From a virus (lineage: Duplodnaviria > Caudoviricetes): DNA of 29,734 bases. This document shows, in pieces, positions 4,081-23,690 of the stretch (the first letter of the stretch is position 1; each line of letters starts with the position of its first letter). Where the stretch lies: IMG/VR virus record IMGVR_UViG_3300049436_000011, positions 1 to 29,734 of that record; one strand, written 5' to 3'. A model generated the notes under the pieces. It worked only from the letters and a program-made list of their open reading frames with translations, had not been told where the DNA came from and made no database searches. The position numbers and the translations under genes are program-made.

Positions 4081-6008
4081 GAGTTTGATTGTGCTAATGA
4101 TAGTACCCTGGTGAGCTGATCAAGGATCATCTCCTTCATCTGGTCAGCAGACTCTTTAAAGTTCCCGTTTCCGTTGATCGTGAGCGTTCCAACCAGATCC
4201 TTTAGCGTGATGGTGATATTGGTTGATTTGGATCCACCGGTGACAACCGACTCGGCAGTCTTTTTCCCTTCTTTGGTTGGTGCCGGAGCACTACCTCCTT
4301 TTGCACCCGGCAATCCCGGGGTATCAATAGCGGCCCCTGGCACATACGCCTGGGTACCGAATGCTCCATTGGGAGTTACATCGGCACCAGGTGCGCCGAC
4401 AAATGGAGACACGGCTCCACCAGACTTATCAGAAAATGCACCTTTGACAACATCCCTGGCGGCCATTGCCGCCTTTTGCACAGAACCGGCTCCGGAGAGA
4501 TCCATCGCGCCTTGTTTGGCATCTGCCCAGGCTCCCTTGAAATCACCAGAGAATAACTTTCCGATCGCAGAGCCCAGGGCACCGATCCCGGAGATAAGAC
4601 TATGCACCCGATCAATAACAAATTCTTTCAAAATGCTCCCGAATCCTTTGATTACCTCCCAGGTACCCTTCACTGCATTGCGGAAACCTTCAAACTTATT
4701 CCAGGCGAGTATAATCCCTCCAACCACAGCAACAATTGGCAAAGCATACATGGCTGCAGTCAAAGCCCAGGTTGCAGCGGTCCATAATCCAGTTGCTGCA
4801 GCTGCAAACCCCTCGGTTATTGTTGACCAGGATGCGGCAAGCGTAACCAGGCCAACAGCTAACTGAACTCCCATAAGAGCACCTTTGAATGCAGGCAGCG
4901 CTCCTTTTGTTAAATTGAAAATACTGATCCCCCAATCTTCCACTGCAGCTTTCATGCGTCCCATTTTCTCCTGGTAACTGCCCATGACGATATCAGCCTG
5001 TTCAGTCGCTGACTTGGTTCCGGATACAGCCCCGGTGAGTCTCTTGATCTCATCAGTACCACTCATGAGCGCAATGGCTGCATTCTGATTCTCCTTGCCA
5101 AAAAGCTTTGTCACCAGGGCAGCATCATTCATAATCGGTTTAAGGAGATTCAACCTTTCAGAAAATGAAAGGCTGGTATTGCCCAGACCCTGAAGATCCA
5201 CCCCGGCTTTTGTGAGTGCCTTCTGAGTTTCGGGAGGCAGGAACCGGCCTTCAGATAAAGTTGCCAGAACATTGCGGATGGCCACACCTCCTTCAGCACC
5301 TTTCTTGCCAGCCTTATCCATCACCTGGATCGATGCATTAAGTTCCTCGAATGAGATATTTGCCGCTTTTGCTGCCATCCCGGAGTTTTCCAAAGCGGCT
5401 TTAATTTGTGGCAATTCAGCGGATCCTTCTTTTGCAGCTGCAGCCATCACGTTCATCATGCTGGCCATCGTGCCTGCTGCTTTGGTCGGATCATCGAGGG
5501 CAACCTGGAACTGGTTCATGGCAGTGGTGAGTACTTCAGTGGCCCCGATGGTATCGCCGCCCATTGTCTTTGAAAGAACATTGACACTGTCCCCCATCGC
5601 CTTGAGCGCTGCAGGCGTGTTGGCAATTTCAGGACCAAGTTGGGAAAGGATAAGCTTGTACGATTCCACCCCCTTCGATGCGGATCCCCCGAAAGTCTTA
5701 GCAGACTCCCTGGCATATCCCTCAATCTGCTTGAGCTTATCTGCGGCAACTCCGGTTATGGCCTGCAGATCAGTTAAGGATGTATTGAGGTCAATACCGG
5801 GTTTGATAGCTGCATCCATCGCCGACGACATGTTGTCGATCGCACTTTTGATGTTGTTTGCAGCAAAGGCAGCTGCACCGATCTTCATAACAGCAGACTG
5901 CAGCGATGAAGTTGCCTTCGTCGCTGCAGCGGCTGATGTGTTAATGGAGTTGAAACCCTGGGCAGCATTTCCGGCAACGTTGATCGTATATGTCGTAGTG
6001 CTGTTCAT
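4077..6008 (-). CDS. Tail tape measure protein (TP901-family core)
   Basis: 643 aa Ala/Gly-rich helical protein; KGAEGGVAIRN and KLFGKEN motifs; hydrophobic central region; follows tail chaperone. Confidence 0.93.
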   Translation of the reverse strand: MNSTTTYTINVAGNAAQGFNSINTSAAAATKATSSLQSAVMKIGAAAFAANNIKSAIDNMSSAMDAAIKPGIDLNTSLTDLQAITGVAADKLKQIEGYARESAKTFGGSASKGVESYKLILSQLGPEIANTPAALKAMGDSVNVLSKTMGGDTIGATEVLTTAMNQFQVALDDPTKAAGTMASMMNVMAAAAKEGSAELPQIKAALENSGMAAKAANISFEELNASIQVMDKAGKKGAEGGVAIRNVLATLSEGRFLPPETQKALTKAGVDLQGLGNTSLSFSERLNLLKPIMNDAALVTKLFGKENQNAAIALMSGTDEIKRLTGAVSGTKSATEQADIVMGSYQEKMGRMKAAVEDWGISIFNLTKGALPAFKGALMGVQLAVGLVTLAASWSTITEGFAAAATGLWTAATWALTAAMYALPIVAVVGGIILAWNKFEGFRNAVKGTWEVIKGFGSILKEFVIDRVHSLISGIGALGSAIGKLFSGDFKGAWADAKQGAMDLSGAGSVQKAAMAARDVVKGAFSDKSGGAVSPFVGAPGADVTPNGAFGTQAYVPGAAIDTPGLPGAKGGSAPAPTKEGKKTAESVVTGGSKSTNITITLKDLVGTLTINGNGNFKESADQMKEMILDQLTRVLSLAQSNS

Positions 6009-14908: not shown

Positions 14909-16078
14909 ATGGAAAAGAAAAAGGTCACGGGAAAGAAACGCGATACCGGCATGGCCGGAACTATAGCACCAAAGGCAATCAGCCAGGCACGCAATGATCT
15001 CGCGACTTGGAAGATGGCGCTCAAGCAGGCCGAAGCAATAGAAGCCCCCAAGAGGATCCGCCTGCAAAACCTGTATAAGGACATATCCATTGACGGCCTG
15101 TTAACCTCCCAGATGGAAAACCGGATCCTGCAGACAATGGCAGCATCATTCTCCCTGAAGGATCAAGGCGGCAAGGTTAATCCGGAAGCAACCGATATCC
15201 TGAAGAAATCCCGGTACTATTATGATATCGTTCGCAATATGCTGGACTCGATCTATTATGGCACTACGGTCATTGAGATCCTGAATTCCGATGCCGGCGT
15301 AAGGATTGAATTGATTCCCCGGAACAACATTGAGCCGCGAAAGGGCCTGTTTTTGACGGATGAGAACAACACTACAGGGATCCCGATTCGCGAAATGAAG
15401 GAGTACGGTACCTGGGTCCTCGAGTTCGGAGATCCTAAGAACTTCGGCTTGTTAAATAAGGCCATTCCGCATGTATTGTTCAAAAGGTTCGCTCAGTCGT
15501 GTTGGTCCGAGCTCTGCGAGATCTACGGGATACCCCCGCGCGTGATGAAGACCAATACTCAAGATGCAACGATGTTGTCGCGTGCTGAACAAATGATGAG
15601 AGATATGGGCGCAGCTGCCTGGTTCATCATTGACGAGACCGAGGAGTTTGAATTCGCAAAGGGAGCCGACAGCAACGGCGATGTGTATGCCAACCTGATC
15701 AAACTGTGCAACAATGAGAATTCGATGCTGATATCCGGTGCCATTATTGGCCAGGATACAAAGAACGGCAACGAGAGTAAGGAGAAAATATCCGTTAACG
15801 TCCTGTCCCGTTTGGTGGATGCTGACAAGAGGATGGTTGCAAGTTACTTCAATGACATGGTGCTCGGTGCCCTTGTGCGCATCGGCCTGATCCCGGATAA
15901 CCTGACCTTTGAATTCGATCCCCAGGAGAATATTGAACTTCTCTGGTCGATGGTAAAGGAGGTATTACCGCACATGGAGGTTGACCCCGCGTGGATCCAG
16001 GAGAAGTTTGGCATTAAGTTGACTGGGAAAAAGACAACCACGGATCCAAACGCAAAGCTTTCCAGTTTTTTCGACTAA
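14909..16078 (+). CDS. Portal protein (DUF935 / Mu gp29-like)
   Basis: 389 aa; LYKDISIDG, GLLNKA, WSELCEIYGIPPRV, NNENSMLISGA motifs; between gp36-like gene and MuF. Confidence 0.9.
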   Translation: MEKKKVTGKKRDTGMAGTIAPKAISQARNDLATWKMALKQAEAIEAPKRIRLQNLYKDISIDGLLTSQMENRILQTMAASFSLKDQGGKVNPEATDILKKSRYYYDIVRNMLDSIYYGTTVIEILNSDAGVRIELIPRNNIEPRKGLFLTDENNTTGIPIREMKEYGTWVLEFGDPKNFGLLNKAIPHVLFKRFAQSCWSELCEIYGIPPRVMKTNTQDATMLSRAEQMMRDMGAAAWFIIDETEEFEFAKGADSNGDVYANLIKLCNNENSMLISGAIIGQDTKNGNESKEKISVNVLSRLVDADKRMVASYFNDMVLGALVRIGLIPDNLTFEFDPQENIELLWSMVKEVLPHMEVDPAWIQEKFGIKLTGKKTTTDPNAKLSSFFD

Positions 16079-16097
16079 GCCCCTCCTTTGAGGGGCT
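16066..16097 (+). other. Predicted -1 programmed ribosomal frameshift cassette (portal to MuF)
   Basis: T_TTT_TTC at 16066-16072 in portal frame, spacer GACTA, hairpin AGCCCCTC-CTTT-GAGGGGCT; -1 frame is open into MuF. Confidence 0.75.
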
Positions 16098-16212
16098 GCA
16101 CGCGAGGCTTGGAGCAATATACCACCATGCGCATGATTGTTCCACTGGCGTCACCCTTGCCGCCTCCAGTGACAAGATTCCTGCCTATAATATCAAAATC
16201 TGGAAACAGGTC

Positions 16213-16947
16213 GTGAATCATATCCGGAAGATTGGATCCTACAGCGCAAAAATGCTGAAGGATAAACCGGTGATGGCAGCGCTGGAGGAAACCAACCGGA
16301 TCCTGTCTGCAGGATTCGAGTCAGGGATCTCCGACAGTAATCCTCCCCAGGAGATGATTGACAGCCTGAAAAATGATGTGTTCGTTTTCTCGGCCTGCAA
16401 AACGCACGTTGCCCTGAAGGAGCTCTCCACTATGCTGCTCAATGATCAGGGACAGATCACGCCATTGTCAGAATTCAAACAGAAGGCCACAGCGCTGCAC
16501 CAGCAGTACAATGAGAATTATCTCGAGGCTGAATACATTTTCGCGACAACGAGCGCACAAATGGCCGGAAAGTGGGCAGGTTTTGAAAAGGACGGCGACC
16601 GGTATAACCTGCAGTACAGAACTGCCCAGGATAGCAAAGTGAGAATATCACATGCAGCCCTGGCAAACATCACCCTGGGGGTGGATGATCCGTTCTGGGA
16701 TAAGTACACCCCTTCCAATGGATGGCGCTGCCGGTGCACGGTTCAACAGGTGCGTAAAGAAAAGTACGCGCTAAGTGATTCGGAAGCTTCAATCTCAAAG
16801 GGTGAAACGGCCACTACGGATATTGATGCTAAGGGTAATAACCGCGCTGAGATGTTCCGCTTCAATGCCGGCAAAGAGAAAGTTATCTTTCCACCGTCGC
16901 ATCCGTATTACAAAGTACGCTCACAGGTTGACAAAAACATAGGGTAA
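16213..16947 (+). CDS. MuF / SPP1 gp7-like minor head protein (no C-terminal toxin domain)
   Basis: YNENYLEAEY, LQYRTAQDSKVRISHAAL, DDPFWDKYTPSNGWRCRCTV, FRFNAGK, HPYY; frame is open upstream to the portal slippery site, so the GTG at 16213 may not be a true start. Confidence 0.9.
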   Translation: MNHIRKIGSYSAKMLKDKPVMAALEETNRILSAGFESGISDSNPPQEMIDSLKNDVFVFSACKTHVALKELSTMLLNDQGQITPLSEFKQKATALHQQYNENYLEAEYIFATTSAQMAGKWAGFEKDGDRYNLQYRTAQDSKVRISHAALANITLGVDDPFWDKYTPSNGWRCRCTVQQVRKEKYALSDSEASISKGETATTDIDAKGNNRAEMFRFNAGKEKVIFPPSHPYYKVRSQVDKNIG

Positions 16948-17450
16948 TGGACTTCCTGAAAACCTTTATCAGTGACCTGCGTGTTGAAGTGGCCGACGAG
17001 TTCGATCGCAATTTCGAGCGCAAAGGATTCTTTGACGAGAAGTGGCCGGATACCAGGATCCCCAATCGCCGGGGCACGCTCATGATGCGCACCGGAGCCC
17101 TCAGGCGCAGTATCGAGTCCGCCTCGAGCAGTAACAGCATCAAGTTCTTTTCATCCCTGCCATACGCCTCCATTCACAATGACGGTGGATACATCACTGT
17201 CACGGCAAAGATGAAAAAGTACTTCTGGGCCATGTACATGAAAGCCGGTGGAGCCCGTAAGGGTGCCAGGATGAATAAGGAGGCTGAGATATTCAAGGCG
17301 ATGGCCCTGAAAAAAGTGGGTTCCCGGATCAAGGTTGAGAAGCGCCAGTTCATTGGGCCTCATGTTCAGATTGACCAGGCTGTTGACCGGATCTTTCAAC
17401 AGCATTTAAACGACTTTACAACACGCATTCAAAAGCAATTAAAGCCATGA
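16947..17450 (+). CDS. Virion morphogenesis protein (Mu gpG-like neck/tail completion)
   Basis: 167 aa; FDRNFERKGFF, LMMRTGALRRSI, PYASIHNDGG, KRQFIG. Confidence 0.85.
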   Translation: MDFLKTFISDLRVEVADEFDRNFERKGFFDEKWPDTRIPNRRGTLMMRTGALRRSIESASSSNSIKFFSSLPYASIHNDGGYITVTAKMKKYFWAMYMKAGGARKGARMNKEAEIFKAMALKKVGSRIKVEKRQFIGPHVQIDQAVDRIFQQHLNDFTTRIQKQLKP

Positions 17451-23617: not shown

Positions 23618-23690
23618 TGGTCCGCGCTGACAGGATTCGAACCTGCATACAGGATGCTAACCTGTGACCTGCCATTAATCGACAGCGGGA
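23618..23690 (-). tRNA. Non-canonical tRNA-like element, apparent anticodon AGC (Ala), encoded CCA
   Basis: T-arm GCAGG-TTCGAAT-CCTGT, anticodon arm ACAGG-TTAGCAT-CCTGT, D-loop AATGG, acceptor TCCCGCTG/CAGCGCGGA and CCA; atypical linkers. Confidence 0.6.

Follow-up and report, generated by a model that had tools for sequence, protein, structure and literature searches.

The window (the whole 29,734-nt stretch of DNA analysed here, from virus record IMGVR_UViG_3300049436_000011) carries a portal gene followed directly by an open reading frame for a MuF protein, which lies in the -1 frame relative to the portal and offers its earliest candidate start codons only well inside the region that is conserved in relatives. 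How, then, is MuF translated? The initial annotation proposed that some ribosomes slip back by one base at the end of the portal gene and make a portal-MuF fusion protein. We report that the signal is real and strongly conserved across Bacteroidota Mu-like phages. Judging from its sequence and its distribution, the portal-end heptamer and hairpin would very probably direct a programmed -1 ribosomal frameshift, giving free portal and portal-MuF from one mRNA.

The phage itself is a Mu-like (transposable) Bacteroidota phage, as its genes include a Mu-type transposase and ATPase, a Mu-type portal, a gp36 adaptor, terminase, sheath and tape measure. Its host phylum is suggested by its nearest relatives, those portal relatives of named origin that come closest being encoded in Bacteroidales MAGs (74% identity). 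Identity to the portals of Winoviridae isolates is just 25-30%.

The portal-MuF junction in the window

The Mu-type portal gene (14909..16078, + strand; 389 aa, 43.9 kDa; PF06074, E = 3.9e-71) ends in TCC AGT TTT TTC GAC TAA. Within this end, the slippery heptamer T_TTT_TTC (16066..16072, + strand) is in portal phase and covers two Phe codons. It is followed by a 5-nt spacer, GACTA (16073..16077, + strand), which runs into the portal stop TAA (16076-16078), and by an 8-bp GC-rich hairpin, AGCCCCTC-CTTT-GAGGGGCT (16078..16097, + strand; -14.6 kcal/mol), the predicted 3' stimulator. The 78-nt segment downstream of the heptamer folds with a z of -2.96. Among the 189 X_XXY_YYZ heptamers present on both strands of the window, T_TTT_TTC at 16066-16072 alone is followed, at +5 to +30, by a stem that reaches -12 kcal/mol or lower, which argues for a signal beyond chance. 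The window signal therefore has both the in-phase heptamer and the 3' stem at 5-9 nt by which programmed -1 frameshift sites are recognized. The initial annotation's description of heptamer, spacer, hairpin and open -1 frame was accurate on each point. A reading of the hairpin as a terminator was rejected, the T-run preceding the hairpin on the + strand and A's following it on the - strand. At the gathering threshold, Rfam gave no family at the portal-MuF junction and a single tRNA-like match elsewhere in the window. Contigs from two DNA runs, one of them possibly the source sample, span the junction with no differences or gaps (the contig of the second run covers 15710-16325), and the fact that they bridge it unchanged rules out an assembly slip. 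Contigs from two RNA runs do not extend across this site.

Starting at 16018, the -1 frame runs without a stop until MuF ends at 16947; the preceding -1 stop lies 61 nt before the portal stop. From the heptamer onwards (16072..16947, + strand), it encodes 291 aa with a MuF domain (Phage_Mu_F, SPP1 gp7-like; PF04233, E = 2.8e-12; phrog_220, minor head protein), predicted to be the C-terminal part of a 679-aa portal-MuF protein. Recomputing the proposed product returned the same 388 + 291 residues and a mass of 76.3 kDa, against the 43.9 kDa of the portal. With PF04233 encoded directly downstream of a portal, the protein belongs to the MuF (SPP1 gp7-like) superfamily; since its 291 aa hold PF04233 only and lack a C-terminal toxin domain, it is not itself a MuF polymorphic toxin. 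The frame overlaps the portal gene in -1 and is open and conserved from the shift site, as in the second open reading frame of a frameshift pair that needs no start of its own. Its stop shares one base with the next gene, a neck or tail-completion gene (16947..17450, + strand; phrog_26).

The earliest candidate starts in the MuF frame are GTG at 16213 (residue 48) and ATG at 16252 (residue 61). The stretch ahead of that first ATG (16072..16251, + strand) comprises a conserved helix (residues 6-17), a flexible linker containing Cys and, at residues 41-54, the helix with which the MuF fold begins. An AlphaFold model of MuF, built on a 71-row alignment, has a mean pLDDT of 91.9, rising to about 98 from residue 41, and predicts helix 41-54 with confidence. 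In this model, the helix would be lost with a start at ATG 16252 and halved with a start at GTG 16213. A Foldseek search of the model against the PDB gave no match at E <= 0.001.

The proposed sequence of events would be as follows. A ribosome with tRNA-Phe on both UUU and UUC would pause at the stem located 5 nt downstream, and both tRNAs would re-pair one base back, the step from UUC to UUU being a weaker wobble. Translation would then bypass the portal stop and enter MuF.

Phase, heptamer and stem in related phages

If this reading holds, homologues should share a fixed -1 phase between portal and MuF, a slippery site, compensatory changes in the hairpin and a linker free of stops, and some might be naturally fused in frame. 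All of these checks, put forward in the initial annotation, came out in its favour, and no refuting outcome that sequence comparison could have revealed turned up. We pooled 444 loci, including the window, from scans of viral, genome and metagenome sequences; as they are the best-scoring 80 per scan, the loci are related and not independent. Once 188 duplicates (178 + 10), 16 loci without a MuF match and 5 without a portal match were left out, there remained 215 distinct non-fused junctions and 20 fusions, which were counted apart.

In these sampled Bacteroidota Mu-like phages, MuF is in the -1 frame at 212 of the 215 distinct non-fused junctions (type A), a phase that is fixed and not random. 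The script had called 209 junctions as -1 and 6 as +1; three of the latter (L070, L370 and L371) were reassigned on inspection, as their junctions are in -1 and the frame is interrupted further inside MuF, by a break or an N-run, and the true +1 exceptions are L297, L302 and L431. The neighboring junctions of these loci, taken as controls, vary in phase, with 0/+1/-1 counts of 44/48/103 for gp36-portal and 37/43/59 for MuF-neck. An in-phase T_TTT_TTY or A_AAT_TTT is present at 208 of the 212 type-A junctions, so the slippery site is conserved as well. The script found 205 of these strict heptamers (160 T_TTT_TTC, 29 A_AAT_TTT and 16 T_TTT_TTT), three more were assigned by eye (L370, L371 and L381), and the four remaining loci carry G_GAT_TTT or N_CTT_TTT. 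The background is low, as such a heptamer occurs in 22 of 4,209 windows of twelve codons within portal bodies, at 2 of 195 gp36 ends and at none of 139 MuF ends. The 29 loci with A_AAT_TTT fall in separate clades, and in them three bases have changed together with re-pairing kept. A further sample of 86 loci comprised 40 duplicates, 6 incomplete loci, 37 fusions and 3 separate pairs, all three in -1; L531 is in -1 phase and has no strict heptamer among the last 12 codons shown.

The 60 nt downstream of the heptamer fold with z < -2 in 78 of 138 loci, compared with 4 of 137 control segments (mononucleotide shuffles), and in 113 of 150 non-redundant loci the stem begins 5-6 nt past the heptamer. 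At +8 and +9, C-G pairs (103 of 132 loci) are exchanged for G-C pairs (22 and 21), the compensatory change that was sought, although stems were selected as best-pairing, which biases these counts toward paired cells. Stem length is weak as evidence, as stems of at least 6 bp also occur in 254 of 591 control segments. An upstream stimulator resembling a Shine-Dalgarno sequence, which the dnaX frameshift has, was considered and rejected, as it is present at 31 of 150 loci and is not conserved. In the A_AAT_TTT clade (e.g., L028-L030, L037, L063 and L066), the portal stop lies within a long hairpin loop. There, the loop sequence CGCAC and a GTGCG located 10-13 nt downstream could possibly form an H-type pseudoknot; in 7 of 27 loci the script preferred this pairing to all others, and both halves are also conserved coding sequence.

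The same T-runs might suggest that the slip is made by RNA polymerase, which would add one U in T6 so that some mRNAs encode the fusion directly. Such transcriptional slippage would agree with T6 runs at 100 of 138 sites, with the T7 of L080 and L354, which would be its pre-shifted form, and with L297 and L302, where T6 stands in another phase and +1/-2 is required. We nevertheless regard it as very unlikely. T6 is short for polymerase slippage, the 29 A_AAT_TTT loci mostly have just four T's (28 runs of 4), and the four type-A loci without a strict heptamer have runs of T4-T5. Moreover, the T6 of type-A loci starts at codon position 3, the phase of a tandem slip, to which polymerase slippage is indifferent, and a 3' stem 5-6 nt away suits a ribosomal pause. 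The four T's of A_AAT_TTT, the fixed codon phase of T6 and the 5-6 nt spacer thus favor slippage by the ribosome.

The linker bears on where MuF begins. Over the 45 codons past the portal stop, a stop is present in the 0 frame in 171 of 205 type-A loci and in the +1 frame in 202, whereas the -1 frame has none (0/205), a result due in part to the selection of the loci. Residues of this linker are conserved: P4 (90%), Y17 (94%) and L29 (95%) over the 205 loci, all upstream of the window's first candidate start. By contrast, start codons are not conserved, no alignment column before residue 95 having one in more than 33% of the 205 loci. The -1 frame opens no more than 6 nt before the heptamer in 65 of the 205; a start codon in the MuF frame lies upstream of the heptamer in 29, and in 56 an ATG, GTG or TTG follows it by no more than about ten codons.

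These data weigh against MuF being a separate gene that is translationally coupled to the portal and starts at 16213, at 16252 or at a non-AUG codon, with a hairpin that serves coupling or RNA processing. GTG 16213 and ATG 16252 do exist, MuF is read from its own ATG in Mu, lotta8, FPSV-S1 and L431, and since Bacteroidota starts, to our knowledge, lack Shine-Dalgarno signals, the sequence by itself leaves room for a MuF start. However, start codons share no conserved column, both 16213 and 16252 lie downstream of conserved residues, and truncation at either would cut into the MuF fold. A separate gene also leaves unexplained the fixed -1 phase, the heptamer and the presence of the signal within in-frame fusions, and we consider it even less likely than slippage by the polymerase. 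In some phages, independent initiation may add MuF to the product of a ribosomal frameshift, a possibility raised by Hankyphage p00, where an ATG overlaps the portal stop.

Among the +1 exceptions, L431 (~2667) has lost the slippery site, and its MuF has an own ATG that overlaps the portal end; its close relative L396 keeps the signal.

In-frame fusions as a mirror arrangement

Natural in-frame portal-MuF fusions exist, and most retain heptamer and stem. Of 92 longer portal homologues, 91 of which have PF04233 on record, 68 have an FF..AP-type motif where portal and MuF meet; this motif is what heptamer plus stem encode in the 0 frame. At the DNA level, 16 of the 20 fusions keep T_TTT_TTY and a stem of the GCC-C...GGGGC type, and their -1 frame stops after 17-41 codons; of the other four, L304 is degenerate, L080 and L354 are pre-shifted type-A loci with T7, and L203 has no stem. 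In the second sample, 36 of 37 fusions carry the signal and have a -1 stop after 15-30 codons, a set that overlaps the first and includes many near-identical members; L203/L527 is the fusion without stem. At these fused genes, a ribosome slipping into -1 would terminate after 15-41 codons and release a short free portal, in a mirror image of the type-A arrangement.

Codon choice at these sites is fixed. At 13 distinct fusion junctions, NNT, TTT and GCC are each used in 13 of 13, where the codon use of each gene predicts 4.4, 5.8 and 4.6, and GGG is used in 12 of 13 against 2.5 expected. Such fixed synonymous choices imply that selection acts on the nucleotides. That the motif owes its conservation to the protein (FF..AP..GA), or that the junction is a relic or an assembly artefact of a once-fused gene, is strongly disfavored and the least probable of the alternatives: in-frame fusions are common, and homopolymers are prone to errors, but one stretch of DNA serves different frames in type-A and mirror loci, the choice among synonymous codons is fixed, the junction is unchanged in a second DNA run, and the break falls at one shared place in more than 200 distinct loci.

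The two arrangements are found among close relatives. The portal of L454, a type-A locus, is 73% identical to a mirror-type protein, type-A and fused forms interleave on a portal-domain tree of 210 rows, and a 51-row IQ-TREE quick tree requires 8 changes of the fused label, of which 5 or more are forced by branches with support of 95 or higher. Module recombination could account for some of these swaps. L080 (Flavobacterium covae, ~4155-4165), L354 and the proteins P0001, P0004, P0006 and P0035 resemble a pre-shifted type-A product; these fusions are scattered singletons on the tree, and are either homopolymer errors or locked alleles. Nested among mirror-type phages are two distinct loci, L297 (~1874-1905) and L302 (~2809-2840), in which T6 is read as CTT TTT TCG, the stem lies 8 nt after the run and MuF is in +1 (= -2). 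They may represent a +1 or -2 variant, or slippage; a pure -1 model does not explain them.

Among eight records of cultured phages, Hankyphage p00 and Elizabethkingia phage TCUEAP3 combine a T-type heptamer and stem with a MuF in -1 phase. In fF4 (L446) and Peternella_1 (L447), MuF is also in -1, in an overlap with A-runs (A_AAA_AAA) in place of T-runs, and the fF4 MuF has an annotated GTG start as well. A P. gingivalis phage is of the mirror type, and its -1 frame runs into a stop after 19 codons. Finally, lotta8, FPSV-S1 and Mu have MuF in +1 phase with an own ATG and no such site. The signal thus extends to portals that are only about 25% identical, yet it is not universal.

Known frameshifts, MuF and the portal ring

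The phage frameshifts known so far mostly concern tail chaperones or extend capsid or tail-tube proteins. The lambda G/GT and SPP1 17.5/17.5* pairs are likewise phage late genes in which a -1 slip near the end of the first open reading frame gives a fusion with the second, and the putative slip site of SPP1 17.5/17.5*, UUUUUUC, is the one found in the window (excerpts of PMC6316719). The portal-MuF pair would work alike and is not a member of the G/GT family, as its site lies in genes for a portal and a minor head protein, in the head module, and the window has a G/GT-type pair elsewhere. The lambda G/GT ratio is 30:1 and neither product is part of the virion, according to the accessible part of PMC5009743. 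A second parallel is dnaX, where one signal likewise gives a long and a short product (tau and gamma) and lineages exist in both arrangements; the same source, in the part available, notes with reference to dnaX that, when efficiency is close to 50%, a slight change can swap the product that depends on the shift (PMC5009743). The dnaX site is A_AAA_AAG, whereas T_TTT_TTY or A_AAT_TTT is used here and the products are virion parts.

In SPP1, as here, muf is located directly downstream of the portal gene, and 1-2 copies of gp7, which binds the portal, enter the head (excerpts of PMC5576092 and PMC6316719). The SPP1 genes are separate and the link is non-covalent, in contrast to the covalent fusion predicted here, which would replace the gp6-gp7 targeting of SPP1 (PMC6316719, in part). 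Fused portal-MuF proteins are a viable architecture, as in-frame fusions are also found in Microbacterium phages EA3, EA5, EA8 and EB; these are described as plain fused genes, and the available passages of PMC7302621 mention no recoding signal at their junction. In the full-text literature searched, which comprised main texts and few subscription papers, we found no description of a frameshift at the portal-MuF junction or in a portal gene. The word "frameshift" is absent from PMC5576092, PMC11699363, PMC7761591, PMC8776804, PMC11445458 and the available part of PMC3482391, as is "portal" from the first 300,000 of the 449,034 characters of PMC5009743 and from the available part of PMC10885494. 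The mechanism is therefore a known one, in a gene class for which we found no report, with a mirror form within the same phage group.

After a ribosomal frameshift, the fusion would co-assemble with free portal in the ring. The C-terminus of portal proteins follows the crown. As the crown faces inward (PMC11445458, in the portion available), the C-terminal MuF of the fusion is predicted to sit within the head. Selection would keep two products rather than one reading order, and presumably both are needed. The repeated swaps of arrangement among relatives, together with the dnaX precedent, suggest that efficiency is probably high, by analogy tens of percent rather than a few percent. The initial annotation held that recoding tethers MuF to a minority of portal subunits; this low stoichiometry is weakened by the interchange of mirror forms among close relatives, which agrees better with a high shift efficiency.

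Toxin C-termini occur in the relatives of this MuF, as they do in MuF toxins. The 150 non-redundant type-A loci hold 142 complete -1 open reading frames, 105 of them long, and Pfam assigns 33 of these 105 long MuF tails to toxin types (18 CdiA-C, 7 PBECR2, 5 ADP-ribosyltransferase and 3 glutamine deamidase) and 9 to LPD3, with no match for the other 63. We tentatively suggest, short of an even expectation, that Bacteroidota transposable phages use a flippable frameshift of high efficiency to make mixed portal rings, with MuF covalently attached to a large share of the subunits and, in many gut and environmental members, with its toxin domain as well, that the portal thereby acts as a loader setting the toxin dose, and that the annotated N-termini of MuF toxins are wrong. 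If so, portal rings would be mixed in a large group of phages, the common gut Hankyphage among them, loading of MuF and its toxin cargo would be covalent, hundreds of MuF starts would be mis-annotated, and "fused" portal-MuF genes would conceal a second, short product. The paired natural arrangements offer a direct handle on the role of MuF in the head and on the copies needed, and the cultured phages make the proposed frameshift testable now.

Two other features of the window may be recorded. The candidate G/GT-type tail chaperone frameshift (6197-6191, - strand), of a known kind, lies in an open reading frame (6487-6188) directly before the tape measure gene; its site reads GAG GAT TTT TAG (G_GAT_TTT), and the -1 frame continues for about 55 codons. 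A tRNA-like element (23622-23689, - strand) is called tRNA-Ala(AGC) by ARAGORN and has a weak Rfam score of 31.2 bits; the AGC anticodon is unusual for bacteria.
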